Source of the DNA: Nitrospinota bacterium
GTDB taxonomy: Bacteria > Nitrospinota_A > UBA7883 > JACRLM01
Direction: 5' to 3'
Assembly: GCA_016235255.1 (NCBI GenBank)
Contig: JACRLM010000031.1
Location: 43,763-107,762 of the forward strand
DNA: 64,000 bases
The position numbers and the translations under genes were made by a program. This document shows positions 27,034 to 58,458 of this stretch, piece by piece (the first letter of the stretch is position 1; every line of letters starts with the position of its first letter). The notes below the pieces were generated by a model. It made no database searches, was not told where the DNA came from, and saw nothing but the letters and a program-made list of their open reading frames with translations.

Positions 27034-27158
27034 TGTTCCTCTACTGCTTTTAATGCTAACAAAGATGTATTTGAAAATATACGCAAACTTTATAAAGAAC
27101 GGCCCGGCTCCGGTATTATACCAGAGCCGGGACCGCATCATTCTACCAGGAACACGCC

Positions 27159-28742: not shown

Positions 28743-28817
28743 GCCTATATCCTTTCATTTCAAGCCTATTTTCCGTAAAGCCGACGAACCCCAAGCCCGC
28801 CGGCCTCTTTAAAACCG

Positions 28818-30487: not shown

Positions 30488-30502
30488 TTGATTATCCCCG
30501 AA

Positions 30503-39238: not shown

Positions 39239-40120
39239 ATGCCATTAAGAGTTTACAACAACCTGTATTCCCTCACCGCCCAGCGCAATTTGGGCACCAA
39301 CAACGCCAGCCTTGGCACATCGTTGGAAAGACTTTCATCCGGTATGAGGATCAACCGCGGATCGGACGACGCGGCGGGTCTGGCCATATCCGAAGGCTTG
39401 AGGGCGGACATCCGCTCCCTCCAGCAGGCCACAAGGAACGCTTACGACGGCGTGAGCATGATCAACACGGCGGAAGGCGCCCTTTCCGAACAGTCTTCCA
39501 TCCTCGTTCGTATGCGCGAACTGGCCGCGCAGGCCGCCACGGGCACAGTCGGTTCCACCGAACGGGCCACCATCAACCGCGAATTTTCCGCGCTGCGGGA
39601 CGAAATAGACAGGATCTCGACGGTCACCGAATTCAACGGCCAGAAACTGCTCAACGGCGCACTGAACGGCGACATAACCACCATCAAGTTGAACAACGGC
39701 GCATCCGCCAACTCGGTGGTGATCCAGATTGGCATGCAGGCCGGCTGGGCTGACCGCATCAGCCTGAACGCCTCCGTGGACCTGACCGCCATAGACTCCA
39801 CCGGGCTTAACATAACCAACATTTCGGTGACGCACGTCTCTTCGGCCCTCGACGCTCTTGGCAGGATAGATTCCGCTCTTGCCAGGGTGACCGAAGCCCG
39901 CGGCCGGCTTGGCGCGGTGCAAAACCGGCTCGTGCACACCATCAACAACCTGGCGGTGTCCGCTGAGAACCTGCAGGCAGCCGAATCACAGATACGCGAC
40001 GCGGACTACTCGCACGAAATCTCGCAGTTCACCAGGAATCAGATACTGGTGCAGGCTTCGACGGCGATCTTGGCCCAGGCCAACCTTGTGCCTCAGTCGG
40101 TGCTGCAGCTGCTCGGTTAA
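39239..40120 (+). CDS. fliC: Flagellin (short, 293 aa, D0/D1 only)
   Basis: The N-terminus LGTSLERLSSGMRINRGSDDAAGLAISEGL and the C-terminus LGAVQNRLVHTINNLAVSAENLQAAESQIRDADYSHEISQFTRNQILVQASTAILAQANLVPQSVLQLL are the flagellin N and C domains. Confidence 0.9.
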   Translation: MPLRVYNNLYSLTAQRNLGTNNASLGTSLERLSSGMRINRGSDDAAGLAISEGLRADIRSLQQATRNAYDGVSMINTAEGALSEQSSILVRMRELAAQAATGTVGSTERATINREFSALRDEIDRISTVTEFNGQKLLNGALNGDITTIKLNNGASANSVVIQIGMQAGWADRISLNASVDLTAIDSTGLNITNISVTHVSSALDALGRIDSALARVTEARGRLGAVQNRLVHTINNLAVSAENLQAAESQIRDADYSHEISQFTRNQILVQASTAILAQANLVPQSVLQLLG

Positions 40121-40385: not shown

Positions 40386-41975
40386 ATGTCTATTTCCATT
40401 GACGGGCTGGTCTCAGGGACTAACTATACGTCCTTGATCCAGCAACTGATTGACATCGAGAGGCAGCCCATAAAGCTAATCGAGAACAAGCAGACCATCC
40501 TCAAGGAAGAAAAGACCGCCTGGTCGGCCATCAGCCCCAAGCTCGTTTCGCTTGAGTCCGCCGCCAATGACTTAAAATCGGCCCAGAAGTTCTCCAGCCT
40601 GTCCGCCTCGTTCCAGAACAACAACTCCGCCGGCGGGTCCGTCCTGTCGGTCACGGCCACCACATCCGCGGCGGCAGGCACATATAACGTAAAGGTCACT
40701 CAACTAGCCGCCAACCAGATTTCCGCCAGCAGCCAGACTTTTGCGAGCATGACCACAGCCGCCGGGCTTTCGGGGACCTTGAGCATCGGCGCCACCAACG
40801 TGAGCATCACTTCCGGGCAGAGCCTGTCGGATATTTTGAGCAACATAAACAATTCGGCCGCCGCAGCCACGGCGACAATAGTCAACTCCGGAACGACCGC
40901 AAGCCCACTATACAAGCTTGTCCTCTCCGGCGATGACACCGGGGCCGCCGGGGCATTCACCGCATCAACGGTGATGGACGCGGGAGCGCTTAGTTTCACC
41001 ACCACGCAGTCCGCCCAGAACGCCCTGTTCACCGTCAACGGCATATCCATAAGCAAGGACACGAACACGGCCACTGACGTCATTTCCGGGGTGACGCTAA
41101 ACCTGCAGACCTCCGGGTCCGGCGCCGTGACGGTCGCCACCGACTATGCCGGGATCGTCACGAAGGTAGAAAAATTCGTCGCCGCGTACAATGACGCGCT
41201 CAACCTGATCTCCAACGAGCTCAAGTACGACCCGTCCACAAAGTCGAAAGGGGCGCTTTTCGGCAATAACGCCCTGATGACCATACAAAACCAGCTGCGC
41301 TCCATAGTCAGCGGCGCGGTGCCCGGACTGGACCCCACTGACACAAGCACGTTATCGACGCTGTCGCAGGTGGGGATCATGATGGACCGGAATTTCCAGC
41401 TCACGGTGGACACAGCCGAGCTTTCCTCGGCGCTGCAGACCAATTTTGCCCAGGTCCAGAACCTTTTCGCCCCCAGCGGAAGCGGTACCTACACTTTCGT
41501 GGCCGCCTCTGGCAAAACACAGGGCGGGACATACAGCACCAGGGTGTCCGGCGGGGTGTTCCAGATGAAGCTTTCCGGCACAAGCGACTGGATATCCCTC
41601 ACGCAGGACGGGAACTTCGCCCTTGGGCAGGCCGGAACATCGCTTGAAGGGCTGCTAATCAGGACAGGATCGCTGGTGGAAAGCGCCACGGGCCAGATGA
41701 AAATAACCGTGGGCGTGGCCGAGCGCGTGGCCACCAACGCTTCGACTTACACGGAATATTCGGCTGAAGGGCTGATCTACACCCAGACCAAGAGCATAGA
41801 TGACCGGGACAGGGAATATCAGGACAACATTGACGCCTTGAACGTGAGAATCACGAAAAAGGAAGTGGACCTGAAAGCTAAATTCGCCAATCTGGAGGTC
41901 TTGCTGGCAAAGATGAGCTCCCAGCAGCAATACCTTAACAACCAGTTGACGAACCTGAACAAGAACTGGAGATAA
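40386..41975 (+). CDS. fliD: Flagellar filament cap protein FliD (hook-associated protein 2)
   Basis: The N-terminus ISIDGLVSGTNYTSLIQQLIDIERQPIKLIENKQ and the C-terminal coiled coil (...DNIDALNVRITKKEVDLKAKFANLEVLLAKM) are characteristic of FliD. Confidence 0.85.
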   Translation: MSISIDGLVSGTNYTSLIQQLIDIERQPIKLIENKQTILKEEKTAWSAISPKLVSLESAANDLKSAQKFSSLSASFQNNNSAGGSVLSVTATTSAAAGTYNVKVTQLAANQISASSQTFASMTTAAGLSGTLSIGATNVSITSGQSLSDILSNINNSAAAATATIVNSGTTASPLYKLVLSGDDTGAAGAFTASTVMDAGALSFTTTQSAQNALFTVNGISISKDTNTATDVISGVTLNLQTSGSGAVTVATDYAGIVTKVEKFVAAYNDALNLISNELKYDPSTKSKGALFGNNALMTIQNQLRSIVSGAVPGLDPTDTSTLSTLSQVGIMMDRNFQLTVDTAELSSALQTNFAQVQNLFAPSGSGTYTFVAASGKTQGGTYSTRVSGGVFQMKLSGTSDWISLTQDGNFALGQAGTSLEGLLIRTGSLVESATGQMKITVGVAERVATNASTYTEYSAEGLIYTQTKSIDDRDREYQDNIDALNVRITKKEVDLKAKFANLEVLLAKMSSQQQYLNNQLTNLNKNWR

Positions 41976-42016: not shown

Positions 42017-42454
42017 ATGCAAGGTTACGGCAGGCCATCGGTTTACCAGGTGACGCAGGTTTCGACCGCGAACAAGTCAAAGCTGGTCCTCATGATGTAT
42101 GACGGGGCGATACGCTTCATCAACGACGCGAAACGCTGCCTTGAAACACGGGACATCGCGGGCAGGGGGCTTGCCATAAGCAAGGCTCAACGCATAGTGC
42201 ACGAATTGCGCGCCGCTCTGAACATGGAAAAAGGGGGAGAGGTGGCGGTCAGTCTGGAGAAGGTCTATTCGATCGTCAACAGGCGGCTTTTGGACGCGAA
42301 CATGAAGGGAAGCGTGGCGGACCTGAACATCTGCATGGACATGTTCACCACGTTAAAGGACGCGTGGAGCCAGGCGATGCACTCGGCGGGGCAGGAGCAA
42401 ATGCCGATCCACGCCGCGCCAATGGCGGCGGCCGGGGTTAAAGTGGCCGTCTGA
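42017..42454 (+). CDS. fliS: Flagellin-specific chaperone FliS
   Basis: YQVTQVSTANKSKLVLMMYDGAIRFINDAK...VAVSLEKVYSIVNRRLLDANMKGS is the FliS four-helix-bundle signature. Confidence 0.85.
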   Translation: MQGYGRPSVYQVTQVSTANKSKLVLMMYDGAIRFINDAKRCLETRDIAGRGLAISKAQRIVHELRAALNMEKGGEVAVSLEKVYSIVNRRLLDANMKGSVADLNICMDMFTTLKDAWSQAMHSAGQEQMPIHAAPMAAAGVKVAV

Positions 42455-43975: not shown

Positions 43976-44001
43976 CTTATTTGAGACAAAGGAGGGCGGT
44001 C

Positions 44002-44865
44002 ATGGGCGGCAAATCGGTGTGCTGGATGGACGGGAAAATCGTCCCGGGGGACGAGGCGAAGGTTTCGGTGTTCGATCACGGCCTGCTGTACGGCGACGGC
44101 GTCTTCGAGGGTATCCGGTTCTACCGGCGCAGGATTTTCAAACTCGGCGAACATTTGGACAGGCTGTTCGGCTCGGCCCGGGCCATCGCCCTTGATGCAG
44201 GGCGCACCCATGACGAAATCAGAACGGCTGTGGAAAAGACCGTTGCCGCTTTCCCTGGTGAAGACGGATACTTAAGGCTGGTTGTCACCCGGGGCAAAGG
44301 GCCGCTGGGAATAGATCCAAAAAAATGCCCGAAACCGTCGTTATTTATCATCGCGGACGAACTTGCGATGGTGAGCCGGGAAGCCCGCGAGCGAGGCGCA
44401 AGGGTGATAATCGCATCCACCCGGCAGGCCCCTTCCGATGTGCTCGACCCGCGCATTAAAAGCCTTAACTACTTGAACCGCATCCTGGCCAGGATCGAGG
44501 CGAACCGGGCGGGGGCCGACGAAGCTTTGCTGCTCAACGCACAGGGAAGGGTGGCCGAGGGGACGGCGGACAACGTGTTCATCGTCCGCAACGGGCGTGT
44601 GCTAACCCCTCCCGCCGTCGAGGGGGCGCTGGAGGGGATCACCCGGTCTGTCGCTCTGGAACTGGCGGGCAAGGCCGGGATTCCCGCCGCCGAAACGGCA
44701 TTGGCGCCATATGACATATATACGTCCGACGAGTGCTTTTTAACCGGGACGGGGGCTGAACTGATACCCGTGGCGCAGGTGGACGGCCGGCAATTGGCCG
44801 CGTGTCCGGGGCCTGTGTTCCTTGAATTGTCCAAAAGGTTCATGGCGCTCGTCACGCAGGGATAA
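44002..44865 (+). CDS. Class IV (fold-type IV) PLP aminotransferase, branched-chain amino acid aminotransferase-like
   Basis: DHGLLYGDGVFEGIRFY and the later E..NVF...G.L.TP / TGTGAE motifs. AGGAGGG RBS lies before the ATG at 44002. Confidence 0.75.
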   Translation: MGGKSVCWMDGKIVPGDEAKVSVFDHGLLYGDGVFEGIRFYRRRIFKLGEHLDRLFGSARAIALDAGRTHDEIRTAVEKTVAAFPGEDGYLRLVVTRGKGPLGIDPKKCPKPSLFIIADELAMVSREARERGARVIIASTRQAPSDVLDPRIKSLNYLNRILARIEANRAGADEALLLNAQGRVAEGTADNVFIVRNGRVLTPPAVEGALEGITRSVALELAGKAGIPAAETALAPYDIYTSDECFLTGTGAELIPVAQVDGRQLAACPGPVFLELSKRFMALVTQG

Positions 44866-44932
44866 GGGCAATTTGGAGGCAAATTACTAAATCCAGGCGC
44901 CTTGCCGCCGTTTGATTGGCTATACTGTCCTG

Positions 44933-46924
44933 ATGAGCGCTAAATTCAGGATAGTCTCGGACTTCAAGCCGGCGGGGGACCAGCCGGACGCCATCGCAAA
45001 ACTCGTGGAGGGAGTCGAGTCCGGTTTGAAGCACCAGACGTTGCTGGGGGTCACAGGCTCGGGCAAGACTTTCACCATCGCCCACGTCATCGAAAAAACC
45101 CAGAAACCTGCGCTGGTGATCGCCCATAACAAGACCCTGGCCGCCCAGTTATATTCGGAGTTCAAGTCGTTTTTCCCGGAGAACGCGGTCGAATATTTCG
45201 TCTCCTATTACGACTACTACCAGCCGGAGGCGTATCTGCCCAAGACAGGCACATACATCGAGAAAGACTCCTCCATCAACGAGGAGATAGACAAGATGCG
45301 CCACTCCGCCACCATGTCGCTTCTGGAGCGGCGGGACGTGATCATAGTGGCCTCCGTTTCGTGCATATACGGTCTGGGTTCGCCGGAAGCATATAACGCC
45401 ATGCGGATCCGGATCGAGCGGGGCAAGAAGATGGAGCGGGACGCGCTTCTGGAAAAACTTGTGGAGATACAGTACGAGCGAAACGACATCGACTTTAAAC
45501 GCGGCACGTTCCGCGCCACCGGGGACGTGGTGGAGATACTCCCCATATACGAAAGCGACACGGCGATACGCGTGGAGTTCTTCGGCGACGAGATAGACTC
45601 CATAAGTCGGGTGGACTCCCTCACCGGCAGGGTGGCCGCCAGGCTTGACGGGGTGAACATCTATCCAGGCTCGCATTACGTCACCCCCGCCGAGGTGATG
45701 GAAAAGGCCATGGGCAGGATCCGCTCCGAACTTCTGGAGGTGGTCCCGCAATTCACCGTCAACGGCAAACTTATCGAGGCGCAGCGGATAGAGGAGCGCA
45801 CCATGGCCGACATCGAGATGATAAAGGCCATCGGCTACTGCAACGGGATAGAGAATTACTCGCGCTACCTGACCGGCCGCAAGCCGGGGGATCCGCCCCC
45901 CACCCTTCTGGACTATCTGCCCAAGGACGCGCTATTGGTGATAGACGAATGCCATCAGACAATCCCGCAGATCGGCGCCATGCTAAAGGGGGACAGGTCC
46001 AGGAAGAGATCGCTGGTGGAATACGGGTTCCGCCTTCCTTCCGCCTATGACAACAGGCCCCTTTCCTTTGAGGAGTTCGAGGCGCTTGTGCCGCAGGCGA
46101 TATACGTTTCCGCCACACCGGCGGCCTACGAGCTGGAAAAGTCTTGCGGTGTGGTTGTTGAGCAGGTGGCGCGTCCCACCGGGCTTTGCGATCCTCAGAT
46201 CATCGTGCGCCCCGTGGCGGGGCAGGTGGACGACCTGCTCGACGAGATAAGGAAACGGGTGGAGCGCAACGAGCGGGTGCTTATCACGGCGATGACCAAG
46301 AAGCAGGCCGAAGACCTCGCCGATTACTATCAGGGGCTGGAGGTGCGGGCCCGCTACCTGCATTCGGACATCCAGACCCTGGAGCGCATGGCGATCATCC
46401 AGGACTTGCGGATGGGGGAGTTTGACGCGCTCATCGGCATCAACCTTCTGCGCGAGGGGCTGGACATCCCGGAAGTGAGCCTGGTGGCCATCCTCAACGC
46501 GGACATGGAGGGGTTCCTGCGGTCGGAAACGTCTCTGATCCAGACCTCCGGGCGCGCCGCGCGTAACGTGGAGGGGACGGTGATAATGTACGCCGACAAG
46601 ATGACCGGCTCGATGAAGCGGGCAATCGGCGAGACAGACAGGCGCAGGAGCATCCAGCGGGCCTACAACGAAAAGCACGGCATCACCCCCCAGAGCGTGA
46701 AGAAAAAGATCGGCGAGGCGCTCGCCTCCGTGTACGAGCAGGATTATGTGACCGTGCCCAAGGAAAGCGAGGAAGCGCTCGACTATCTGCCGGAGGCGCA
46801 GATCGAAAGGCTGATCCGCGAATACGACGCGAAGATGAAAAAAGCGGCGCGGGACCTTGACTTTGAGACCGCCGCCATGTACCGCGACAGGATAAGGAAG
46901 CTTAAGAAGATGGAGATGAAATGA
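44933..46924 (+). CDS. uvrB: Excinuclease ABC subunit B
   Basis: [37 protein letters not shown] and the C-terminal UVR domain ([12 protein letters not shown]). Confidence 0.95.
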
Positions 46925-46956
46925 GCCCATGCCGGTAAAATCGGGCTAAAATATTT

Positions 46957-47316
46957 ATGGCGAATACCATGCCGGAGGAAACCATGTTTGAAAAGAGCGT
47001 CACCACCAACATCAATATCAACGGCAAGGTTTACCGGAGCCTTGACGAGGTCCCGGAGGAGCTGCGCGCCCTGCTTGGGGACAACATCCACAAGGCCATG
47101 GAAAATCCGGGCCAGACAATCACTGCCAAGAGCGGGTTGGAGGTTCCGTTGGACCAACTGCCCAAAGAAACCCGGGACAAAATCGCTTCCATGTTGCCGG
47201 GCAAGGCGCAAAACTCCTCAAGCGGCGTCAGCTTCACGATAAAGGGGGGGCGCAAGGCAGACGAGGGATCACAACCGGCATTTTTGGCCTTGACTTGCCG
47301 CTCCAACCGTTCTTAA
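46957..47316 (+). CDS. Hypothetical protein (119 aa)
   Basis: ORF with reasonable codon bias and no recognisable domain. Confidence 0.3.
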   Translation: MANTMPEETMFEKSVTTNININGKVYRSLDEVPEELRALLGDNIHKAMENPGQTITAKSGLEVPLDQLPKETRDKIASMLPGKAQNSSSGVSFTIKGGRKADEGSQPAFLALTCRSNRS

Positions 47317-47345
47317 ACTGAGAACTTAAATTCAACCGGAATAAA

Positions 47346-48110
47346 ATGAATAACACCTTACGCAACGCGGCCCTCATTCTCGCTGCGGCCTTCACAATGG
47401 CCGGAACATCTTCCTGCGCTTCCATGACCGATTCTCTGATCTGGAAAACGGAGGACGCGGACAAGCCGATGCCCGGCAAACCGGCGCAGGCCAAACAGGA
47501 AAAGGCGGCGGAGATAACGCCTGTGGGCCTGGAGGAGACGCGGATAAATCCAATTAGCCCCGAGGAGACGGCGCGCACGGCCCTTTCGCGCCCGAAAGTG
47601 GTGAAGGTGGAAGAGGCCGGCCTCGGCAACGGAGCCAACAAACGGTACTTCGAGGTGGTGGACGAAAAGGCGCAGACTCCCTCCGGAGCCGCCGTGGACG
47701 AGGGGGCAAAGCCCACCCGGGTGGTCACATACGACAACAACTCGGTGCTAAAAGAGTACAACCTGAAATTCGGCGTGGCCTGGAACAGGATTGTGGACAC
47801 CGTTGTGGACCTTCCGTTGACAACGCTGGACAGGTCGTCCGGGATGATATTGACCGGCTGGATATATGACGAGCGCAAGGACAAGGACGCGCTCATCTCC
47901 ATCAACCCCTTCGGGGGAGATGCGGTGATCCGCTATCGCTATAACGTGCGCATCGCCGACAAGGGGGCATCGGTACAGATAAAGGTGGTCCCGTTCACGG
48001 AGGTCTTCAAGGGGACCAGGTGGGAAGAGGCCAAGCCAAACATCGTCGTCACCGACAGGCTGTTTAAAAGGCTCGAACGGGAGCTGGCGATCCCGCTGGC
48101 GTCGGAGTGA
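47346..48110 (+). CDS. Hypothetical lipoprotein (254 aa)
   Basis: Signal peptide with lipobox-like MAGTSSC. The mature part is a beta-rich soluble domain with no family assignable by eye. Confidence 0.45.
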   Translation: MNNTLRNAALILAAAFTMAGTSSCASMTDSLIWKTEDADKPMPGKPAQAKQEKAAEITPVGLEETRINPISPEETARTALSRPKVVKVEEAGLGNGANKRYFEVVDEKAQTPSGAAVDEGAKPTRVVTYDNNSVLKEYNLKFGVAWNRIVDTVVDLPLTTLDRSSGMILTGWIYDERKDKDALISINPFGGDAVIRYRYNVRIADKGASVQIKVVPFTEVFKGTRWEEAKPNIVVTDRLFKRLERELAIPLASE

Positions 48111-48128
48111 TTCCGGTAAAACTCCTGA

Positions 48129-48782
48129 TCAGGAAAGATTGAGCGAGGGGAGGACCGCCTCCACCGCCGCGATCAGGCTTCCTATCCTTTCGCTCTTGGT
48201 CTTGTAGGAGGCCCTGTTCACCACAAGGCGCGCCGTGGCCTCCATGATAAGCTCCACCTGCGTAAGCCCGTTCTTGCGCAGGGTCTCGCCCGTGGAGACA
48301 AGGTCGACTATCCTTTCGGAAAGACCGACCAGCGGGGCCAGCTCGATGGAGCCGTACAGCTTTATTATCTCTATCTGCACTCCCCGCCCGGCGAAATGGG
48401 CCTCCGTGATGTTGGGGAATTTCGTCGCTATCCTGATGTGGGTCCAGTCGCCGGGGTTGTCCCGCTCCGAAAGCTCCTTGGGCTCGGCAACCATCATCCG
48501 GCAGTAGCCGTATTTGAGGTCGAGCGGCTCATACAGGTCCCGCCCCTGCTCGGCCAGCACGTCCGCCCCGGACACGCCGATATCGGCGGAGCCGTTTTCG
48601 ACGTACGTCGGGATGTCCGTGTCCCGCACGACAATTGCCCTGGAGCCGGCCCCGGGCGCTTCGAATATCAGTTTGCGGTTGTCGGTGAGCGCTCCGGAAA
48701 AATCTAGCCCCACCGCCTTGAAAAGCGCCACGGATGGCTTTAAGTTGCGCCCTTTGGGCAACGCTATCGTCAAATATTCCAT
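48129..48782 (-). CDS. hisG: ATP phosphoribosyltransferase (short form)
   Basis: LTIALPKGR, IVVRDTDIPTYVENGSADIGVSG.D and PLDLKYGYCRMMVA. Confidence 0.9.
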   Translation of the reverse strand: MEYLTIALPKGRNLKPSVALFKAVGLDFSGALTDNRKLIFEAPGAGSRAIVVRDTDIPTYVENGSADIGVSGADVLAEQGRDLYEPLDLKYGYCRMMVAEPKELSERDNPGDWTHIRIATKFPNITEAHFAGRGVQIEIIKLYGSIELAPLVGLSERIVDLVSTGETLRKNGLTQVELIMEATARLVVNRASYKTKSERIGSLIAAVEAVLPSLNLS

Positions 48783-48800
48783 TTCATGTTTCCATTTTCT

Positions 48801-50612
48801 TCAGCCGCCGTCCGCCGCGCCGAGGGCCGCGATTTTTTCCTTTGCCTGCGCCATGAGGCTGCCGCCATGTCTGGACAGCCTTATGGTCTCCATATAATAG
48901 AAAGCCGCCGTCTTTTTGTCTCCAGAAATCTCATGCGCCCGGGCAAGGGCGAAGGCGCGCACCGGCCTTGGATCCATGTCCAACCCTTTCTTGATCAGGG
49001 GAGCCGCTTTCACCGCATCGCCTTTCATAAGGTACGCAAGGCCCATGTTGTGGTATGCGTCGGCCGATCCCGGCTCGATTTGCAGCGCTTTCATGTTTTG
49101 CGCTATGGCCTCGTCCGGCTGGTTTGCGGCAAGCGCCACCGAACCCAATAACGAAGCGAACCTGGACTGCGCGGGGAATTTCTCGGCGCCAGCTTGCGCC
49201 GCGGCTTTGGCGCCGGCAAGGTCGTTTAAGGCAAGGTACCCCTTCGCCAGATAGAACTCCTCCGCCCCGGATGGAGGGGACGGGGCGACGGACTTTGACG
49301 CGGCGAACAACGCCAGCGCCACTGCGCATACCGACGCCATCCGCGCATAGTCGCGGCCTTTGAGCCATTCGGCCGCCTGTTTCACAAAAATCCCCGCGCC
49401 AATGGCAAGAAATGGGACCGCTTCCATCCTCATCCGCGACGAAGCGTAAAAGATCACTATGGAGCATGCTATCGCCAGCGGCGGCCCTATGGCGTAGACC
49501 ACGCGCCTGTCCCGCCAGAATCCTGCGGCAAGGCCGGGAATCCCCAGGGCCAGCAGGAACGCGAATGTGGGAAGAGGAAGCCTTAACACCCACGAAAACT
49601 CCGCCGCCTGGTAAAACGAATGGATGTCGGGTATCTCGTAATCGCCCCCAGCCGCCTTGAGTTTGTTGGCCGCAAGCCGCAATATGACCGATGGGGTGGA
49701 GGCGAGAAAGCTTAGCGTCTCATTCGTCCAATAGTCCGACACCTGGCGCTGCGTAAGTTTCTTGCCCAGCCGTTTCTCCGCCTCGGCGTGGAAATCTGTC
49801 TCGGAGTCCTCCGGATTCGGGCGGGAAAACGGAGGGGTGTTGTATCGCCCGGTGAGGTTGTCCGGATTGTTGCATGAATAAAGGAGCCTCCCCCCCTGCG
49901 TCGGCAGCATGGCAAACTCACCTGCGGCGGCGAAGTTCCTTGCCGCTCCGGCCATGAGAGGCGCCATTACTCCGGCGGCGAACATCACGCAGGCGCCAAC
50001 GAAGGCGCCCATCCTGGGGCGGCGGGCAATCCAATACATGGCCGGAACCATCGTCATGAGAAGAGCCGTGTTCGCCCGAAGCTCCACGGCCAATCCGCCC
50101 AACAGCCCGAGCAATAACCATCGTTTCAGGCTTGCGTTTTCCGATGCGCGGACAAGGAGGTGCACGAACAACAGCAACGCCGTCATGGTCAGCGTGGTCT
50201 TGAGGATCGTCAGAGAATAAAAGAACGACACTTTATAAAAAGCGTATATCAGCCCCGCCGCAAGCCCCGCCGTTTTGCCGGCCAAACGCGCCCCGATCAA
50301 ATAAACGAGGGCCGCGCTCACCGAGTCCAGGACGATTTGCGCGGCGCGCACAAACAAAAGATCGTCACCGGCGGCTGCGAGCAGCGCGCCAAGAAAATAA
50401 CCGTACAGCGGATCCATGAAAAAAGCCCGCCCCTCGCCCATGAGAAATCCGGAGGCGATCCCCCTGCCAAGACCTGCGTAATACGCTTCATCGAGAATGG
50501 GTGTGTGGAGCAATGGATTTTGCAGGCTGGCCAGAAGGTGGAGGAACCTGGCCGCAAGCGCCACGGCGAAAACGATCCAGACCTCCCTGCGCCCCCAGGC
50601 CGCATCATCCAT
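48801..50612 (-). CDS. Membrane glycosyltransferase of the GT39/GT83 (PMT/ArnT-like) family with C-terminal TPR repeats
   Basis: The N-terminal ~420 aa have ~11 TM helices, with DEAYYAGLGRGIASG... and the loop-1 acidic motif typical of GT-C enzymes. The C-terminal ~180 aa carry TPR-like repeats (AYHNMGLAYLMKGD..). Confidence 0.6.
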   Translation of the reverse strand: MDDAAWGRREVWIVFAVALAARFLHLLASLQNPLLHTPILDEAYYAGLGRGIASGFLMGEGRAFFMDPLYGYFLGALLAAAGDDLLFVRAAQIVLDSVSAALVYLIGARLAGKTAGLAAGLIYAFYKVSFFYSLTILKTTLTMTALLLFVHLLVRASENASLKRWLLLGLLGGLAVELRANTALLMTMVPAMYWIARRPRMGAFVGACVMFAAGVMAPLMAGAARNFAAAGEFAMLPTQGGRLLYSCNNPDNLTGRYNTPPFSRPNPEDSETDFHAEAEKRLGKKLTQRQVSDYWTNETLSFLASTPSVILRLAANKLKAAGGDYEIPDIHSFYQAAEFSWVLRLPLPTFAFLLALGIPGLAAGFWRDRRVVYAIGPPLAIACSIVIFYASSRMRMEAVPFLAIGAGIFVKQAAEWLKGRDYARMASVCAVALALFAASKSVAPSPPSGAEEFYLAKGYLALNDLAGAKAAAQAGAEKFPAQSRFASLLGSVALAANQPDEAIAQNMKALQIEPGSADAYHNMGLAYLMKGDAVKAAPLIKKGLDMDPRPVRAFALARAHEISGDKKTAAFYYMETIRLSRHGGSLMAQAKEKIAALGAADGG

Positions 50613-50624
50613 CGCCGGGCACCT

Positions 50625-51548
50625 TTACCTTTTTCCCCGTGAAAAAGCCTTTTTCACGGACCAGTCTATATTCTTCCTATCCACGCAATACCGCGCCACC
50701 CATTCGGAAAAGCTGGCGATATGGCAGTGCCGGGTGACTATCCCGGATTCCGAACAATTGTAAAACTCGGCCGGGGGCTGGTCCCGCTTGAGGTTGACGA
50801 AAGCCCACTCCATCCACTGTTTGGACACCGAAAAACTTTTGCGTGTGCGCACCGGGCGGCCGAAAATGTCCCGCTCCTCCACCACGGCGTCCACGCTGGA
50901 GGCCAGGGCGTCCTGGGCGGAGATGTCTTCATAAATCGTGTCCCCGGCGTAGGCCGCCCCGCCGTGAGGGAACGAAAGGTCCTGCCCGATAAAGGCGATA
51001 CGCGGGCAGCCGAGCCTGAAGGCCAAGTCCAGCCCCACGGTGAGGACCGATCCGCCGGGTATTAAATAGCCAAGCCTCTGGTTCATCCGTGCGATTTCCG
51101 TGAGTACAGGGATGTCCGGGGCGAACTTGTTGTAGAAGACCGTCTCCCCTTTCCACGCCTCTATCGTGGCGGGATGGGCTATGGAGGGGACCACAAGAAT
51201 TTTTTTTGCGGTGGAAGCGCCGGCGAAGAACCTGGCCACGTCGGGCTGGGGATCGAGGGTCACGGTGAACGTGGGCGCTATCCCCTCGTCCGCCAATGAC
51301 TTGAAAATCGTGTCCACGGCGATTATCACCGCCTTTCCCTGCGCGGCGTGGAGCCACATCCTGTTCTTGTCCAGCGACGGGCCCGCCCCCACGATCACCG
51401 CCGGAACGTCCGTGAACCTTCCGAACAGCGGCGCAACGCCGGGTGATGATGCGATCTTAGGCTTTAGCGCTTCATGGTTGGCAAGCCATAGGGCGCCGAA
51501 ATTGGCGATGGTGGCGGTCTTTACCTCGTATATCCTTTGCAGGTCCAT
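50625..51548 (-). CDS. Maf-like / DUF115 (6-hydroxymethylpterin diphosphokinase MptE-like) protein, putative flagellin glycan transferase
   Basis: PAVIVGAGPSLDKN...VIIAVDTIFKSL...TVTLDP...GGSVLTVGLDLAFRLGCPRIAFIGQDLSF follows the MptE-like/Maf core (G-x-G-P-S-L). Confidence 0.45.
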   Translation of the reverse strand: MDLQRIYEVKTATIANFGALWLANHEALKPKIASSPGVAPLFGRFTDVPAVIVGAGPSLDKNRMWLHAAQGKAVIIAVDTIFKSLADEGIAPTFTVTLDPQPDVARFFAGASTAKKILVVPSIAHPATIEAWKGETVFYNKFAPDIPVLTEIARMNQRLGYLIPGGSVLTVGLDLAFRLGCPRIAFIGQDLSFPHGGAAYAGDTIYEDISAQDALASSVDAVVEERDIFGRPVRTRKSFSVSKQWMEWAFVNLKRDQPPAEFYNCSESGIVTRHCHIASFSEWVARYCVDRKNIDWSVKKAFSRGKR

Positions 51549-51556
51549 TCGCGCCG

Positions 51557-52951
51557 CTAGCTTGCCACGACGCGGTTGCGCCCCTGCTTCTTGGCATCGT
51601 ACAGCCGCTTGTCCGCCCGCTGGATGAGGCTCTCGGGCGTGTCCCCCTCCGCAAACTCCGCCACTCCAAGGGACACATTCACGCTTATCGTCTTGTCCCC
51701 GCCTTTGAAAACGAACTCGTGGGAGCCGACCGCCGCCCGGAGCGACTCCGCCACCTTGGCCCCTTGTTCGCTCGATGTCTTGTACACTATCACGGCGAAT
51801 TCCTCCCCGCCGTAGCGCGCCACTGTGTCCGCCGCCCGTACAGTGTCCTTGGATATGTCCGCCACCGTGCGCAGCACCTTGTCCCCCACCTGGTGGCCGT
51901 AAGCGTCGTTGAATTTCTTGAAATGGTCCACGTCGTACATTATCAGGCAGAAGGGCTCTTTGTAACGCTGGTAATTTGTTACCGTCTCCTTTAGCTTCTC
52001 GTCGAAATATCCCCGGTTGTACAACTGGGTCAGGTGGTCGACGATCTTCTCCTGCCGGGCCATTTCAAGGGCGTTCTCCAGCTTTGCTATCTTCTCGGCG
52101 GACTCTTTTAGCTTGCGTTCCGACTCCACAAGCCGCTCCCGCACCGCGCCGTTTTCTTTCTGTATGGTCAAAGTCTCGGTGAGAATGGCGCGCTGGATCT
52201 GCTTTATCTCGTCCAGGTTCGTGGTGACAGCGATCTTCCTGGAGTACGTGTCCAACTTGTTGCCGAAGGTTTCGCTGGATACGGAGAGCGTCTGGATGTG
52301 GCTTGTGAGGTTGCTGATTATCCGCTTGAGCTCTTCGCGCTCATTTTCAAGGGCGTGGGACTCGTTGCTCTTGTTGATATAGAAGTTGTACAGGGAGGCG
52401 CTCATGGAGTCCACCTCCGGCTGTTTAAGTTCGGCGAACCGCTTGTCCCGCTTGAACTTCAACGGCGTGTAGAACGGCTCCTCCTCGTCGGCCAATATGA
52501 GCGTCCCTTTGGCGAAGCTGTCCAGAAGGGAGACATATGGGCCGAGAAGCTCCCGCGATGTGTCCACAATCTCCATCCGCGTGTCGTATTCCTTTGCGGC
52601 GGCCGCTTCCACTTTCTGCTCGGCCTCCTCCTTGCCTCCGAACAGCGATCCTATGGCGGAGAACAGACCTCCTCCCCCCCCCCCTTTGGCCGCGCCCCAC
52701 CGGTCCTTCATCCAGGAGTCCACGTACTTCACCAGCGTCATGTAATCGCGATGAAGCTGTTGCACCTGGAAAAGGTTGTCCGCCCCCTTGATGCGCTGGG
52801 CCAGCGCGTCCATCGCTTTTTCAAGCTCTGGATTCCCCTTCACCAGCCCTTTGATATGGGTGAGTATGGCGGTTGCAAGGGTCTTGTACGACTCGATGAC
52901 TTCGGAAAGCCGCTCTGCCTTGTCCCTGTATTTCTGGATTACTTCGCTCAT
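51557..52951 (-). CDS. GGDEF-domain diguanylate cyclase with N-terminal coiled-coil sensor region
   Basis: LTQLYNRGYFDEKL...LIMYDVDHFKKFNDAYGHQVGDKVL...RYGGEEFAVIV is the GG(D/E)EF A-site, with an RxxD I-site upstream. Confidence 0.8.
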   Translation of the reverse strand: MSEVIQKYRDKAERLSEVIESYKTLATAILTHIKGLVKGNPELEKAMDALAQRIKGADNLFQVQQLHRDYMTLVKYVDSWMKDRWGAAKGGGGGGLFSAIGSLFGGKEEAEQKVEAAAAKEYDTRMEIVDTSRELLGPYVSLLDSFAKGTLILADEEEPFYTPLKFKRDKRFAELKQPEVDSMSASLYNFYINKSNESHALENEREELKRIISNLTSHIQTLSVSSETFGNKLDTYSRKIAVTTNLDEIKQIQRAILTETLTIQKENGAVRERLVESERKLKESAEKIAKLENALEMARQEKIVDHLTQLYNRGYFDEKLKETVTNYQRYKEPFCLIMYDVDHFKKFNDAYGHQVGDKVLRTVADISKDTVRAADTVARYGGEEFAVIVYKTSSEQGAKVAESLRAAVGSHEFVFKGGDKTISVNVSLGVAEFAEGDTPESLIQRADKRLYDAKKQGRNRVVAS

Positions 52952-53053
52952 CGGCTCAGGATAACCTTCTTACATTAAAATCGCGGCGGCATGATCCGCC
53001 TTGCGGTAAAGTCTATCCCTATCCGGCAGACGGCGCAACGTTATCGGCGCGCT

Positions 53054-54640
53054 TCATCCGGTCAACACCCTGCCGCCGCGCTGCCGGGTCAGCTTGCCGG
53101 ACTTCATCGCAATGGCGCCATTGACGATAACAGTGTCCACCCCTACGGAGTAATGGAGCGGGTCGGCGTAGGTTGATCTGTCCCCGATGGTGTCCGGGTC
53201 GAACACCACGATGTCGGCGAAATGCCCTTCGCGCAGCCTGCCACGGCCCGACAGACCGAAAAAATCGCAGGCGGCGGTGGAGGTCTTTTTCACCGCCTCG
53301 GGGATGGTGAACATCTTTTTCTCCCGCACGAATTCCTTGAAGAATTTCGGGAACGATCCGAACGTGCGCGGATGTGGCCTGCCCAGGGCCAAAGGCCCGT
53401 CCACCGCCCTTGCGCCAGAGTCCGATCCTATCACCACCCACGGTTTGCGGAGTATTCGGGAAAGGTTGTCCTCGCTCATGCAGAAGTAAATCGCCTCGAC
53501 ATCGGTCTTCTCCTCCGCCAGAAGGTCGAACACGAAATTGAAGACGTCCTTGCCCCGCGCCGCCGCTCCCTGGGCCACGGTGAGCCCTTCCATGCCGCGG
53601 TTTGCGTCCGTCACCACCTGGGACACCATCACCGTCTCCCAGTATTCCGGTTCCGGATGGTTTTTCAAAATCTCCGCCTTGAAAGCGTCTCGCTCGCGCC
53701 TGTCCTTTAACATCGCCACCAGGTTGTCCTTGCCGCCGTCAAACGCCCTGTCCGGCAGAATCACCTGCAATCCGGTGTTGGATGCGAGGTATGGATACCT
53801 GTCCGCCATTATCTCCACCCCGCCGTCCATGGCGCCTTCCAGTATTTCAAAGGCCCGGGGAAGCTTTCCCCAATTTTCCTTCCCGGCGGTCTTTAAATGG
53901 CTCACCTGCAATTTCGCCCCGGAGCCTTTTGCCACCGCCGCCACTTCTTCCAGCGATTCAAGCAGCCTGGGCCCTTCGGATCTTATGTGCGAGGTGAACA
54001 CTTTCCCACGCTCCGCCACCGGACGAAACGCTTCGATGAACTCGTCCGTTTCCGCGAAACAGGCCGGCGGGTACACAACGCCGACGGACATGCCTATTGC
54101 GCCGTGGTCAAGGGCGCCTGCCACCGTCTCCTGTATTTTTTTCATTTCGCGCTCCCCCGGCTTGCTGGAATTCATCCCCAGCACCGAACCGCGCACCGTG
54201 TTGTATCCTATCAGCGCAGCGAAGTTCACCGCCGGTTTCGCGTCCTCAAGCGCGCCGAGATATTCGTCCATCCGCGTCCAGTCAACATTGATGGAGAACT
54301 GTTCCTTGTAATCCCTGGCCCTGCGCGCGGCCACCTCGCCGCTCATGGGGGCCGCCGAATATCCGCAGTTGCCGCCAACCTCGGTGGTCACCCCCTGGGT
54401 CACTTTCGATCCGGCCCTTGGATCGATGATCAGGTAATAGTCCGAATGGGAATGGGCGTCCACAAACCCCGGCGCCACAACGCGCCCGGCCGCGTCCACC
54501 AGCGCATCGGCGTTGTCCGCCGGAATTGATGGGGCAATAGCGACGATCTTGTCTCTTGACACGGCTATGTCCGCCTTGCTCATGGTGGGCGAATCACCGT
54601 CTGCCACAAGGCCGTTTTTGATCACTATGTCGTACTTCAT
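53054..54640 (-). CDS. N-acyl-D-amino-acid deacylase (D-aminoacylase) family amidohydrolase
   Basis: MKYDIVIKNGLVADG...APGFVDAHSHSDY is the amidohydrolase HxH. The product is ~528 aa. Confidence 0.8.
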   Translation of the reverse strand: MKYDIVIKNGLVADGDSPTMSKADIAVSRDKIVAIAPSIPADNADALVDAAGRVVAPGFVDAHSHSDYYLIIDPRAGSKVTQGVTTEVGGNCGYSAAPMSGEVAARRARDYKEQFSINVDWTRMDEYLGALEDAKPAVNFAALIGYNTVRGSVLGMNSSKPGEREMKKIQETVAGALDHGAIGMSVGVVYPPACFAETDEFIEAFRPVAERGKVFTSHIRSEGPRLLESLEEVAAVAKGSGAKLQVSHLKTAGKENWGKLPRAFEILEGAMDGGVEIMADRYPYLASNTGLQVILPDRAFDGGKDNLVAMLKDRRERDAFKAEILKNHPEPEYWETVMVSQVVTDANRGMEGLTVAQGAAARGKDVFNFVFDLLAEEKTDVEAIYFCMSEDNLSRILRKPWVVIGSDSGARAVDGPLALGRPHPRTFGSFPKFFKEFVREKKMFTIPEAVKKTSTAACDFFGLSGRGRLREGHFADIVVFDPDTIGDRSTYADPLHYSVGVDTVIVNGAIAMKSGKLTRQRGGRVLTG

Positions 54641-56818
54641 CTAATTCTCATCCGCGTGTTTGGCGCTTTTAAGCCCCGCTTCCGCCGCCGGATCCGGCCG
54701 GGCGGAAGGGGCGTATATACGCCGGTATAGGACCATGTTGCGCATCACTTTTTTCACATACTCCCTAGTCTCAAGATATGGTATCAATTCCACGAACTCG
54801 TCGTCGTCATGATTTCCAAACCGCGCGTCCCACCTGTCCACGGCGGGGGCTCCGGCGTTATACGCCGCGATGGCGCGGGGGAGGTTGCCCTTGTAACGGG
54901 CCACAAGCTCCTGGAAATATGCCGCGCCGAGGGTCACGTTCGTCTCCGGGTCGAATAACGACAAAGGATCAAACTTCACGGCGGGCTCACGCCCGGAGCC
55001 TGTTTTCTCGAAAATCACCTTGCCTGTGGAGGGTATCAGCTGCATCAGCCCCCGCGCGTTGGCCGGCGACAGCGCGCCGGGATTGAAAGCCGACTCCTGC
55101 TTTATTATCGCAAGGGTCATAAACGGGCTGATCCCACGGCTGGCCGAGGCGCCGCGTATGATCTCCCAATGGCTCACCGGATACACGGCCCGCCAGTATG
55201 GGTCGGTGTAATCCGCCGCGCGCTCGGCGAATATGGGCGAAGTGAGCAGGCGGATGGACTGGTCCGCCGCCCCCGCCCTCCGGTATAACGAAGCAAGCCA
55301 CAAGGTCTCCTCCGATCCACCGCCTGTAAGCCCGCCTATGGCGCCAGCCTCCATCCTCGCCCCTTCCATGTGGCCGATCTGGGCCAGCATTTCAAACCGC
55401 TGATAGCGCCGCAGCGCCTCCTCGGCAAGATGCGCGGGGGGAGCGGTAAAAGCGCCGGTAACCGGATCGATGTCCGCCATGTCCACAGCGCTTTCTCCAA
55501 TTCCTTCCGCCATTGTCCCGTAATATGTGCGCGGATGCTTGCGTGTCAGCGTCGCCATTAAAGCGCTGGCCGATTCGCCGTCCCCCGCACGGCTTTGCGC
55601 CCGGGCCGCCCAATACAGTAATTTCCCGTCATTATTGAATGAACCCGCCTTTTCGGCGGCGCGCTGGAAATACTTCGCCGCTTCCTTGAATTTCCCCTGC
55701 CGGTACTCTACCCATCCCAGCTTCCATCGAATTTCATCTTCCGCAGCGGGAGCAAGCCCCATTGCCAGCGCCCTTGAGTAATGCGATCTGGCGCCGGGGA
55801 AATCCCCCCGGGCCTCGGCGATCTTGCCCATAAGTATCCGCGCCTTTCCAGCCGCTTCGCACGTCGGCTCGGCCTTGATTAATTTAGACGCAGTCTCCAG
55901 CGCCTCGCCCCCCATGTCCAGGTTCCACTGGATAGACGCCATGTGATACATGGCCCATGCGGCGTGGCTGCTTTTCGGGAATTCGTCCAAAAGCCTTTGA
56001 TAGCGGTCAAGCGCCTTCTTGCGCTCACGCCCCTTGTTGTAAGCTTCGCCAAGTTTCAACAGGGCGCTCTCGCGCTGATGCGGCGGCGTGGCGGATTCGA
56101 TCACGCTCTCCAGCTCTTCGGCCGCCTCAGTATATTTGTACGCCGCCTTGAGTTTCTCCGCCCGTTCCATCCGCTGATTGATGGTGGTGATTTCCAGGTT
56201 TTCCCGCAGAGTCTCGTCCGCTCCGCTTTCGATGGAGTCTATCGCGGCCTTCGCCTTTGACGCCGCGCTGGAAGCCGGATATGAAAGATAGATGTCCATG
56301 AAAACGGCATGGGCTCCTGCGGCGTCTCCTTCTTTAAGCTTGAGCGTCCCTTCGATGAAAAGCCGCTCTGGGGCGAATTCGTTTGGAACATCCGCCGCGC
56401 CGATCAACTCCAGATATTCGCCGCACTTTTCCATCCCGGCGTCAGCGCAAGCGGCCCTGACCCGCAATTCGTTGGCCTTGGCCTGTAACGGGGTGTCCGG
56501 ATATCTTTCCAGCATGGTGTTCATGATGGACAAGGCTTCGGCGGGGCGCCTGTCTTCCATCTCCATGCGGGCCAGGTCATACGCCGCATAGTCACCAATG
56601 ATGAACGCGGCGGAACCGAGCTTTGCAAACTCCCGGCGAGCTTCGGAATATTTCCCTGCCTGCTTGAGTTTGCGGGCGCTTTGATACGCCATCGCATGGC
56701 CGCCGGAATCTTTTGACGTGGACTTGAAGGCCGCCGGGCGCTGATCCGGAGTTGTCCCGCACGACGCTAACGAAAGCGCGCTAATGAGCGACGCGGTGAC
56801 GAGCGAAATATTCCGCAA
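54641..56818 (-). CDS. Soluble lytic murein transglycosylase-like lipoprotein (superhelical TPR-like N-domain plus SLT domain)
   Basis: The C-terminal AIIKQESAFNPGALSPANARGLMQLIPSTG is the SLT catalytic motif (ES..GLMQ). Start inferred as TTG at 56818, giving MRNISLVTASLISALSLASC (lipobox LASC). The listed ATG at 56899 would overlap miaA by 119 nt. Confidence 0.75.
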   Translation of the reverse strand: MRNISLVTASLISALSLASCGTTPDQRPAAFKSTSKDSGGHAMAYQSARKLKQAGKYSEARREFAKLGSAAFIIGDYAAYDLARMEMEDRRPAEALSIMNTMLERYPDTPLQAKANELRVRAACADAGMEKCGEYLELIGAADVPNEFAPERLFIEGTLKLKEGDAAGAHAVFMDIYLSYPASSAASKAKAAIDSIESGADETLRENLEITTINQRMERAEKLKAAYKYTEAAEELESVIESATPPHQRESALLKLGEAYNKGRERKKALDRYQRLLDEFPKSSHAAWAMYHMASIQWNLDMGGEALETASKLIKAEPTCEAAGKARILMGKIAEARGDFPGARSHYSRALAMGLAPAAEDEIRWKLGWVEYRQGKFKEAAKYFQRAAEKAGSFNNDGKLLYWAARAQSRAGDGESASALMATLTRKHPRTYYGTMAEGIGESAVDMADIDPVTGAFTAPPAHLAEEALRRYQRFEMLAQIGHMEGARMEAGAIGGLTGGGSEETLWLASLYRRAGAADQSIRLLTSPIFAERAADYTDPYWRAVYPVSHWEIIRGASASRGISPFMTLAIIKQESAFNPGALSPANARGLMQLIPSTGKVIFEKTGSGREPAVKFDPLSLFDPETNVTLGAAYFQELVARYKGNLPRAIAAYNAGAPAVDRWDARFGNHDDDEFVELIPYLETREYVKKVMRNMVLYRRIYAPSARPDPAAEAGLKSAKHADEN

Positions 56819-57758
56819 CTTCCGTCCTTGCGAATATGGCGTCCGCCACGGCGCTTGCCGTGTCTGCCGCTCCGGCGGGTATGCAAATGGCGTTTTCAAC
56901 CTTCTTGAACCATGTTATCTGCCGCTTGGCGAAATTCCTGGTTTCCTTCTTTATCGTCTCCGCCGATTGGGCGGCGGGAATGGCGCCTTCAATCTCCCGC
57001 AGCAACGTCTTGTAGCCCAAAGCCCTCATCGGCTTTGTTTTTTCATTATAACCTTTTTCCTTCAGCCTTTTAACCTCTTCGCGCCATCCTTCTTCCATCA
57101 TCTCGTCCACCCTTTTCCCGATCCGGTCATATAAGACCTTGCGATCCGGGCTTATCACGATCACCAGCGCGTCCCACTCAGGCCGGTTCGGATTCCGGGC
57201 GTATATGCCGCTCATGGTCTTTCCGGTGGCAAGGAACACCCCCAGGCATCGCCGGATGCGGAAATTGTCGTTCGGATGGATTTTCGCCATCCACACCGGG
57301 TCGGCCTCAACGGCCCGTTTGTATAGCCCCGCAAGCCCCTCGGCCGCCTCGATGGCGTCCATGCAAAGCTCCGTCCTCTCGTCCGCCCGCACGCCGCAAT
57401 GCAATCCTTCGGTCAACGCCTTGATGTACAGCCCAGTGCCGCCCACCACCAGTGGGATTTTGACGCGTCTCCACATATCCCGCGCGATGGCCTCCGCCTG
57501 TTCCCGGAACATCCCCACCGTGTAGTTTTCGTCCGGCCCGGCCACGCTTACCAGATGGTGTTTCACCCGCGCCAATTGCCGCGCGGTGGGCTTGGCGGAG
57601 CCGATGTCGAAATGTTTATATACCTGCACCGAGTCGGCGGAGATTATTTCTGTTCCAAGCCTTTCGGCCACGATGACGCCGGTCTCTGTCTTGCCGCAGG
57701 CCGTCGGCCCGGCGATCACCAGCAGCGGCGGCGGAGCGTCCGGGTTATCTGGACACAT
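56781..57758 (-). CDS. miaA: tRNA dimethylallyltransferase
   Basis: LLVIAGPTACGKTETGV..ISADSVQVYKHFDIGSAKP. Confidence 0.9.
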   Translation of the reverse strand: MCPDNPDAPPPLLVIAGPTACGKTETGVIVAERLGTEIISADSVQVYKHFDIGSAKPTARQLARVKHHLVSVAGPDENYTVGMFREQAEAIARDMWRRVKIPLVVGGTGLYIKALTEGLHCGVRADERTELCMDAIEAAEGLAGLYKRAVEADPVWMAKIHPNDNFRIRRCLGVFLATGKTMSGIYARNPNRPEWDALVIVISPDRKVLYDRIGKRVDEMMEEGWREEVKRLKEKGYNEKTKPMRALGYKTLLREIEGAIPAAQSAETIKKETRNFAKRQITWFKKVENAICIPAGAADTASAVADAIFARTEVAEYFARHRVAH

Positions 57759-58458
57759 ATCTGGCGATTATCCTGTTGAATTCGTCCGAGTCCGCCCCGT
57801 CGCCTTTTTTAAGCACAAGCGCGGATTGCTCTTCCGCATTTCCTTTATGACCGAGCCTCGCTTCCGAAAGGAAAAGGATCGGGGGCGATCCTGTGAAGGA
57901 TTTTACGTCACGCACCCTTGTTTCGCCAAAACCGTGCCGCGCAAGGATCGCACAGTATTCATCGCGCCGCTCATGGATCATCGTTATCCAAAGCGCCCCC
58001 CCCTCTTTTAAAACATGCGAGGCCGATTTCACAAGCCCGTCCAGGGTCATCATTATCTCGTGCCGCGCCGCCGCCTTGGCCGGATCGGGATTGAGCCTGC
58101 CGGAGCCTTTGCGCCGGTATGGAGGATTGGAGACAACAGCATCGAACGTCCCTTTTGAAAACAGTTTTGGCGATTCCATCATGTCCCCCGTCACAACATG
58201 ATAGTTTTCAAGCCCGTTGTTGCGCGCGTTCTCTTCCGCCAGCCGAGCAAGCTCCGGGTTTATCTCCAGCGCCGTTATTTTTATCCTCGGATTTTCGATG
58301 CCGATCAATATGGACACCACCCCCACCCCCGCTCCCATGTCCAGAAGCGCCCCCGCTCCCGCCGGACGGAAAAAATCGGCCAGAGCGAACGAATCGCGGT
58401 TGTACCTGTAGCCAGTCTCGCGCTGGTTGAGGCTTAATGTTTTATATGAATGGGCCAT
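57745..58458 (-). CDS. Class I SAM-dependent N6-adenine methyltransferase, tRNA (adenine37-N6)-methyltransferase-like (YfiC/TrmN6)
   Basis: LDMGAGVGVVSI (motif I) and DAVVSNPPY (the NPPY N6-amino methyltransferase motif). The product is 237 aa. Confidence 0.6.
   Translation of the reverse strand: MAHSYKTLSLNQRETGYRYNRDSFALADFFRPAGAGALLDMGAGVGVVSILIGIENPRIKITALEINPELARLAEENARNNGLENYHVVTGDMMESPKLFSKGTFDAVVSNPPYRRKGSGRLNPDPAKAAARHEIMMTLDGLVKSASHVLKEGGALWITMIHERRDEYCAILARHGFGETRVRDVKSFTGSPPILFLSEARLGHKGNAEEQSALVLKKGDGADSDEFNRIIARYVSR

Follow-up and report, generated by a model that had tools for sequence, protein, structure and literature searches.

Gene organization of the locus

A 64,000-nucleotide stretch (hereafter the window) from a metagenome-assembled genome (MAG) of Nitrospinota (Nitrospinae), covering positions 43,763 to 107,762 of contig JACRLM010000031.1 (assembly GCA_016235255.1), contains two adjacent open reading frames (ORFs) on its minus strand. 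One codes for a soluble 307-aa protein of the DUF115 family (50625-51548; hereafter mini-Maf) and the other for a 603-aa membrane glycosyltransferase of the GT-C type with a TPR tail (48801-50612; hereafter GT-C/TPR). A preliminary description of the window had presented them as a possible pair for the glycosylation of proteins or flagellin. Both ORFs were confirmed at exactly these coordinates. NCBI has entries 100% identical to their products, under the names [quoted passage not shown] (307 aa) and "glycosyltransferase family 39 protein" (603 aa). The GT-C gene had been taken to lie upstream of the DUF115 gene, but on the minus strand the DUF115 gene is the upstream one; the coding order is SLT/TPR lytic transglycosylase (54641-56899), amidohydrolase (53054-54640; PF07969, E = 3.5e-24), GGDEF diguanylate cyclase (51557-52951; PF00990, E = 9e-50), mini-Maf, GT-C/TPR, and hisG, for ATP phosphoribosyltransferase (48129-48782; TIGR00070, 201 bits), all on the same strand. 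The last four genes are separated by 8, 12, and 18 bp, and AGGTG, a Shine-Dalgarno-like motif, is found 7 nt ahead of the GT-C start codon. A promoter and terminator scan of 47900-54800 gave nothing above shuffled sequences. An assembly or binning artefact at the junction was ruled out: a contig from an independent Logan assembly (L119), which spans the DUF115 C-terminus, the GT-C gene, and hisG, matches the window at 3525 of 3525 bases.

Conservation of the adjacency

A pattern scan with the DUF115 family alignment, using one genome per species, gave 77 loci, almost all labelled Nitrospinota, of which 69 have at least 1 kb of downstream sequence; the set of GT-C/TPR homologues comprised 37 loci, 26 of them with at least 1 kb of upstream sequence. 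A GT-C/TPR orthologue was beside DUF115 in none of the 77 loci, and a DUF115 gene was near GT-C/TPR in none of the 37. When the GT-C/TPR protein was compared with the DUF115 loci by tblastn, just two weak matches were obtained, both to TPRs only. A hidden Markov model of the membrane domain alone, used for remote GT-C homologues, detected a TPR-less PMT_2 gene in loci L051 and L063 and gave one weak match in L061. The ORF that follows DUF115 in the closest relative (72% identity) starts unlike the GT-C gene, and the genes downstream of DUF115 vary among the other loci with the window's type of synteny.

One relative, GCA_016208975.1, carries both orthologues on a single 2.2-Mb contig, approximately 220 kb apart. 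Its DUF115 block reads FlaG-methyltransferase-miaA-SLT-amidohydrolase-GGDEF-DUF115-pyruvyl transferase and its GT-C block reads GT-C-CNNM-hisG-flagellin-fliD-fliS-uvrB; the window looks like a junction of these two blocks. The second gene order, read on one strand in locus L078, shows that the linkage of GT-C to hisG is also found in a relative. Compared with L078, the hisG-GT-C segment of the window (43981-50612) is inverted, lies beyond uvrB, lacks CNNM, and is joined to the GGDEF-DUF115 block, which points to at least one inversion or translocation. The adjacency therefore looks like an accident of lineage-specific rearrangement.

Domain architecture of mini-Maf

Mini-Maf matched PF01973 (MptE-like) at residues 31-194 (nt 50967-51458) with 125.5 bits against a cutoff of 34.6 (E = 2.4e-36). 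Membership of this family, on which the preliminary description had staked its assignment, is thus borne out. The structural model was confident (predicted local distance difference test score, pLDDT, 90.6) and contained no transmembrane (TM) segment, and mini-Maf has the central PF01973/Maf_flag10 catalytic domain with a Cst-II-like fold. An exhaustive profile search with mini-Maf gave 15,736 relatives. The first few clusters were of its own type (~305-343 aa); the best matches behind them were proteins of 580-660 aa, in which residues ~190-480 align with residues ~10-300 of the query; in BLASTP against a 591-aa example, residues 5-307 aligned with residues 179-495 at 31% identity. Among the best 150 representatives, 6 of the 144 others lack the N-terminal domain of ~190 residues, and 3 of those 6 are shorter than 400 aa.

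Characterized Mafs consist of three domains (~580-670 aa), with an N-terminal Rossmann-like domain and a C-terminal helical bundle around the center, and their C-terminal domain resembles FliS/flagellin (PMC11339370). These flagellin nonulosonic-acid O-glycosyltransferases include the Magnetospirillum magneticum Maf (PDB 5MU5), Campylobacter jejuni PseD, PseE, and Maf4, Aeromonas caviae Maf1, and the Mafs of Clostridium botulinum and Geobacillus kaustophilus. Unlike these, the 307-aa window protein has neither the N-terminal degenerate Rossmann domain nor the C-terminal helical (FliS/flagellin-like) domain, and it corresponds to the central domain only. Judged from its sequence, the window's DUF115 protein is thus a Maf reduced to its core, and this variant, together with the hook-operon position described below, is the new element of the system.

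Alignment of 60 family members revealed 47 invariant columns, including the GPSL loop, D79, D99-P-Q, K141, PDI, PGG, and GQDL; none of the invariant residues among these 60 sequences is a histidine. The family occurs across Nitrospinota and is apparently single copy: with the exception of two MAGs, each genome of the scan had a single locus. An in-frame stop upstream and family lengths of 301-316 aa ruled out that the DUF115 ORF is longer or fused to GGDEF. An identity as MptE/HPPK was also rejected: it was the second-best match only, and mini-Maf has neither the length of such enzymes (~220-240 aa) nor MjHPPK as its closest relative.

Genomic context of mini-Maf orthologues

In 53 of the 72 Nitrospinota loci that are informative, that is, have enough upstream sequence, the mini-Maf orthologue comes immediately after fliK-flgD-flgE in the same orientation, at a median distance of 109 bp from flgE (L012, L015-L019, L021-L052, L054-L064, L067-L069, and L074; e.g., L051:6229-10903). 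Downstream of this unit there is usually a convergent FGE-sulfatase-like gene, a PilS-like kinase gene, and a T2SSF/PilC gene. When every ORF up to 10 kb on either side was compared with Pfam at six such loci, MptE-like, FliK, FlgD, and FlgE were the only non-TPR families common to all six. The orthologues thus differ from the genes of characterized Mafs in following the hook genes fliK-flgD-flgE rather than belonging to an island for flagellin glycosylation that includes pse/leg/neu genes. Because of this recurrent position, a flagellar role of mini-Maf is supported, as far as gene order can indicate.

The window's own clade (15 loci) shows SLT-amidohydrolase-(GGDEF)-DUF115 instead of the hook genes. 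This synteny, in which the amidohydrolase is a conserved upstream neighbor of mini-Maf, was seen in L001, L004-L006, L008-L011, L013, L014, L065, and L070; the GGDEF gene adjoining DUF115 is kept in the window's subclade (L001-L009, L080, and L086), and in L010-L014 the amidohydrolase directly precedes DUF115 with no GGDEF gene between. The diguanylate cyclase of the window has both its GGEEF motif and its RxxD I-site intact, as read from the translation, and no Pfam match was found for its N-terminal ~290 aa. The mini-Maf gene of the window, again unlike the genes of characterized Mafs, is wholly detached from flagellar genes: it lies inside the string from GGDEF to hisG, 10.5 kb from flagellin.

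Flagellar genes are nonetheless found on the plus strand of the window, namely, those for a 293-aa flagellin with D0/D1 domains only (39239-40120; PF00669, E = 3e-44; PF00700, E = 4e-28), fliD (40386-41975; PF07195/PF02465), and fliS (42017-42454; TIGR00208, 101.7 bits, cutoff 53.75). The flagellin is the candidate acceptor of mini-Maf. Its central loop of 66 residues contains 14 Ser/Thr residues, 12 of which are beside an apolar residue, as described for sites in Maf substrates (PMC11339370). By gene content the organism is flagellated; cultured Nitrospina has never been observed with flagella, though the core genome encodes them (PMC5029188). We found no literature on flagellin glycosylation or nonulosonic acids in Nitrospinota. 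The FliB-like flagellin lysine-N-methylase mentioned in the preliminary description is present (4090-5349, plus strand; NF038110, 152.2 bits, cutoff 85). Despite this enzyme in the window, lysine occurs only twice in the flagellin (K136 and K150). An MTS-domain methyltransferase (57745-58458, minus strand) was rejected as the FliB-like gene; it is PrmC/TrmN-like, is located beside miaA, and scores below cutoff for all NCBIfam models.

The GT-C/TPR protein

The fusion of a PMT_2 glycosyltransferase to TPRs proposed in the preliminary description was recovered. PF13231 (PMT_2) matched residues 68-197 (E = 7e-11, 43 bits, cutoff 26.1), and several TPR families scored above cutoff at residues ~450-580, corresponding to approximately four TPRs. 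The membrane domain comprises residues 1-444 (nt 49281-50612) and the TPR region residues 445-603 (nt 48804-49280). The structural model (pLDDT 92.4) gave about equally good matches to GT-C_A enzymes from several CAZy families (AglB, ArnT, ALG12, STT3B, Pmt4, and PglB), with identities of 10-13%. "GT39" is therefore a label from the generic PMT_2 match, and no family-level assignment is justified. When the whole GT-C/TPR alignment was used for a profile search of the PDB, TPR matches dominated and the membrane domain yielded nothing. In Pfam (E ≤ 0.01), only PF13231 and TPR families matched, with no PF02366 (PMT) or MIR domain, and ArnT (GT83) identity was ruled out by a score of 21.7 bits against a cutoff of 567 for the equivalog PRK13279.

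From the model helices and the charge distribution, we predicted 11 TM segments with the N-terminus inside and the TPR tail outside. In 50 family members, the number of Lys and Arg residues per predicted cytoplasmic loop was 2.1-3.4 versus 0.7-1.0 in the short periplasmic loops. The first extracytoplasmic loop has a family-wide net charge of -4.5 and carries a putative catalytic acidic pair, Asp41-Glu42 (codons at 50487-50492), invariant in the same 50 members. A 119-residue loop follows TM7, and the loop between TM9 and TM10 contains the invariant R393 and R395. Equivalents of D41-E42 are D55/E56 of ArnT, D77/E78 of Pmt1, and the DD motif of TMTCs (PMC7801869). The catalytic loop and the TPR tail are accordingly placed in the periplasm by this prediction. 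The flagellar link drawn in the preliminary description is thus supported for DUF115, by the position of its orthologues after flgE, and not for the GT-C enzyme, whose catalytic loop and TPRs are predicted to be periplasmic.

The predicted features of the window protein resemble those of eukaryotic TMTC1-4, protein O-mannosyltransferases of the GT-C fold with lumenal TPRs (PMC7801869), namely, 11 TM segments, a cytoplasmic N-terminus, an acidic pair in the first loop (EL1), a long TM7-TM8 loop (EL4), and extracytoplasmic C-terminal TPRs. In contrast to TMTC1-4, the window enzyme has DE instead of DD, no Pfam match to PF08409 (DUF1736), approximately four TPRs only, and similarity to PMT_2. It shares with PMTs of GT39 the GT-C fold and the Asp-Glu pair in loop 1 and differs from them in its low identity (the 10-13% given above) and in the missing MIR and PF02366 domains. 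It differs from ArnT in having a TPR tail in place of the periplasmic domain and no arn operon; none of the window ORFs is of the arnB/C/D type. In FlmG of Caulobacter crescentus, TPRs recruit flagellins to the glycosyltransferase (PMC7591256); FlmG, however, is soluble and cytoplasmic, with N-terminal TPRs and a GT-B pseudaminyl transferase domain, whereas the TPRs of the window enzyme are fused to a membrane GT-C domain and predicted to be periplasmic. We found no literature on bacterial PMT_2 enzymes with TPRs. The contexts of GT-C/TPR homologues vary, and in other phyla they include arrays of PMT_2/TPR paralogues with GT2, DegT, and acetyltransferase genes; elsewhere, GT-C/TPR genes adjoin GT2 genes of the DPMS/ArnC-like type. 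These GT2-rich contexts fit a polyprenyl-phosphate-sugar donor. By analogy with TMTC1-4, capture of a protein acceptor by the TPRs is plausible.

Discussion

The observed domains, folds, synteny statistics, and lack of conserved adjacency lead us to think that mini-Maf and GT-C/TPR are probably two independent glycosylation enzymes, juxtaposed by a lineage-specific rearrangement, and not a dedicated pair; the topology, donors, and acceptors in the following scheme are inferred. Mini-Maf would act in the cytoplasm, where, ahead of type-III export, it would transfer a cytidine monophosphate (CMP)-activated ulosonic or nonulosonic acid to Ser/Thr residues of an exported axial protein, either the flagellin (39239-40120) or another one. 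Its gene is the last of a fliK-flgD-flgE-maf unit in most of the phylum, and in the window's clade it has moved behind the amidohydrolase and the diguanylate cyclase. The D41-E42 loop, R393/R395, and the four-TPR tail of the GT-C enzyme would face the periplasm, and the sugar that this enzyme transfers would come from a polyprenyl-phosphate carrier and go to an acceptor in the periplasm or envelope, most likely a protein captured by the TPRs (a TMTC-like logic) and less likely a lipid or glycan. Flagellin is recognized and glycosylated in the cytoplasm and leaves by the type-III channel (PMC7591256). A periplasm-facing GT-C enzyme that depends on a lipid carrier therefore cannot be the glycosyltransferase of flagellin, and the two enzymes would act in different compartments.

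Several observations weigh against this scheme. The GGDEF, DUF115, GT-C, and hisG genes are probably co-transcribed in the window, given the 8-, 12-, and 18-bp gaps, the lack of an intergenic terminator signal, and the AGGTG motif before GT-C. A distinct family of TMTC-like membrane and TPR genes is found 0-7 kb from mini-Maf in 10 of the 77 loci, and in L044, L052, L067, and L069 three tandem copies are convergent to mini-Maf and end ~10-20 bp past its stop codon. In addition, the TPR-less PMT_2 gene of L051 (3164-4792, minus strand) and L063 (3143-4771, minus strand) lies ~5 kb upstream of DUF115 on the opposite strand, with a YdcZ exporter gene, a zinc-ribbon gene, and the hook genes between. 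The proximity of such genes to mini-Maf may reflect a real co-localization or chance. The topology of GT-C/TPR is a prediction from its sequence and model helices. The domains to which flagellin binding is ascribed are missing from mini-Maf, and no gene for the synthesis or CMP-activation of nonulosonic acids was found among the window ORFs scanned, nor were nonulosonic-acid genes among the best 25 families (at least four members) within 10 kb on either side of six orthologous loci. The donor might be CMP-Kdo (Kdo, 3-deoxy-D-manno-oct-2-ulosonic acid) rather than a dedicated nonulosonic acid; as shown by Khairnar et al., CMP-Kdo can serve Mafs as a substrate.

A functional pair would jointly glycosylate flagellin or a surface protein, with the TPRs recruiting the substrate and the Maf-like enzyme adding a nonulosonic acid. 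The shared strand, the 12-bp gap, and the probable co-transcription speak for it, as do flagellin, FliD, FliS, and FliB in the same window, the GT-C orthologue 2 kb from flagellin in L078, and the TMTC-like genes near mini-Maf. However, hisG belongs to the same tight gene string, so that close spacing and co-transcription are no proof of shared function here; the adjacency recurs in none of the other loci, the two genes are far apart in GCA_016208975.1, and the GT-C loop and TPRs are predicted to be in a compartment that flagellin never enters (PMC7591256). The TMTC-like genes, for their part, form one BLAST cluster apart from the window GT-C/TPR (hhalign probability 73%) and are not orthologous to it. 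Their products, named "protein O-mannosyl-transferase" by JGI, have ~420 aa with 5-12 hydrophobic segments (at least seven, with one exception) and then C-terminal TPRs. They are convergent to mini-Maf, bring their own donor genes, and also border type IV pilus genes. In L044 (10916-20185), the copies are followed by genes for a sugar C-methyltransferase, GDP-mannose 4,6-dehydratase, and a DPMS-like GT2, and from its gene content this cluster looks like a self-contained periplasmic glycosylation unit beside the hook unit, as do those of L052, L067, and L069. We consider a functional pair very doubtful, although the recurrence of TMTC-like genes near mini-Maf keeps us from setting its probability near zero.

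Two further alternatives concern one protein each. The DUF115 protein might have no flagellar function and be an MptE-like pyrophosphokinase or a transferase of Kdo or nonulosonic acid to other proteins, capsule, or lipopolysaccharide (LPS), with a merely historical reason for its place behind flgE in other lineages; we regard this as unlikely. Somewhat less improbable, though still doubtful, is that GT-C/TPR modifies a lipid or glycan, either lipid A or LPS core in the manner of ArnT or an exopolysaccharide, with the TPRs as a scaffold. ArnT is among the GT-C_A enzymes matched by the model, and the scores of OST and PMT enzymes are as good as its own; the equivalog score is far below its cutoff, the window has no arnB/C/D-type genes, and its ugd region is 33 kb off. 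To our knowledge, TMTC1-4 are the only GT-C enzymes with TPRs that have been studied experimentally. Their acceptors are proteins (PMC7801869).

As a pair, the two genes are ordinary, and NCBI had already named both. A more specific idea, which we put forward as tentative, is that mini-Maf is a self-sufficient minimal Maf that needs neither accessory domain, has been inherited across Nitrospinota as the fourth gene of the hook unit with expression timed to hook completion, and targets flagellin or the hook, perhaps with CMP-Kdo as the donor. If true, a phylum-wide, hook-linked, core-only Maf would define the minimal unit for Maf activity, which is relevant to current attempts at Maf-based glyco-engineering, and would be a further sign that Nitrospinota build and decorate flagella. 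As a weaker extension, several lineages may deliberately co-locate mini-Maf with periplasmic GT-C/TPR enzymes in a "surface-appendage glycosylation neighborhood". The GT-C/TPR protein joins a large set of uncharacterized bacterial TMTC/PMT-like enzymes.

Other features of the window

The preliminary description had also counted ugd and UXS among the surface modification genes of the window. The former was found at 14393-15688; the supposed UXS (13441-14379) is a short-chain dehydrogenase/reductase (SDR) of the dehydratase/epimerase type that scores below every NCBIfam equivalog cutoff. A link of these genes to GT-C/TPR was ruled out, as they lie ~33 kb off among LPS-core genes without arn genes. 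A complete haem-copper oxidase cluster (25243-31339, minus strand) comprises CtaB-like UbiA, CtaA/COX15, COX1, COX2, and COX3, and a multihaem cytochrome c3/c7-like protein is encoded at 571-1671 (plus strand). The ORF at 9757-10704 (minus strand) is a strong match (403 bits, cutoff 250) to GSU2086, an NCBIfam family with no assigned function. At 16486-19325 (plus strand), a GAF-GAF-PAS ORF (16486-18501) is followed 45 bp on, in another frame, by an ORF with HATPase_c only (18546-19325); they may represent two genes or a single sensor kinase gene that has been split or frameshifted.

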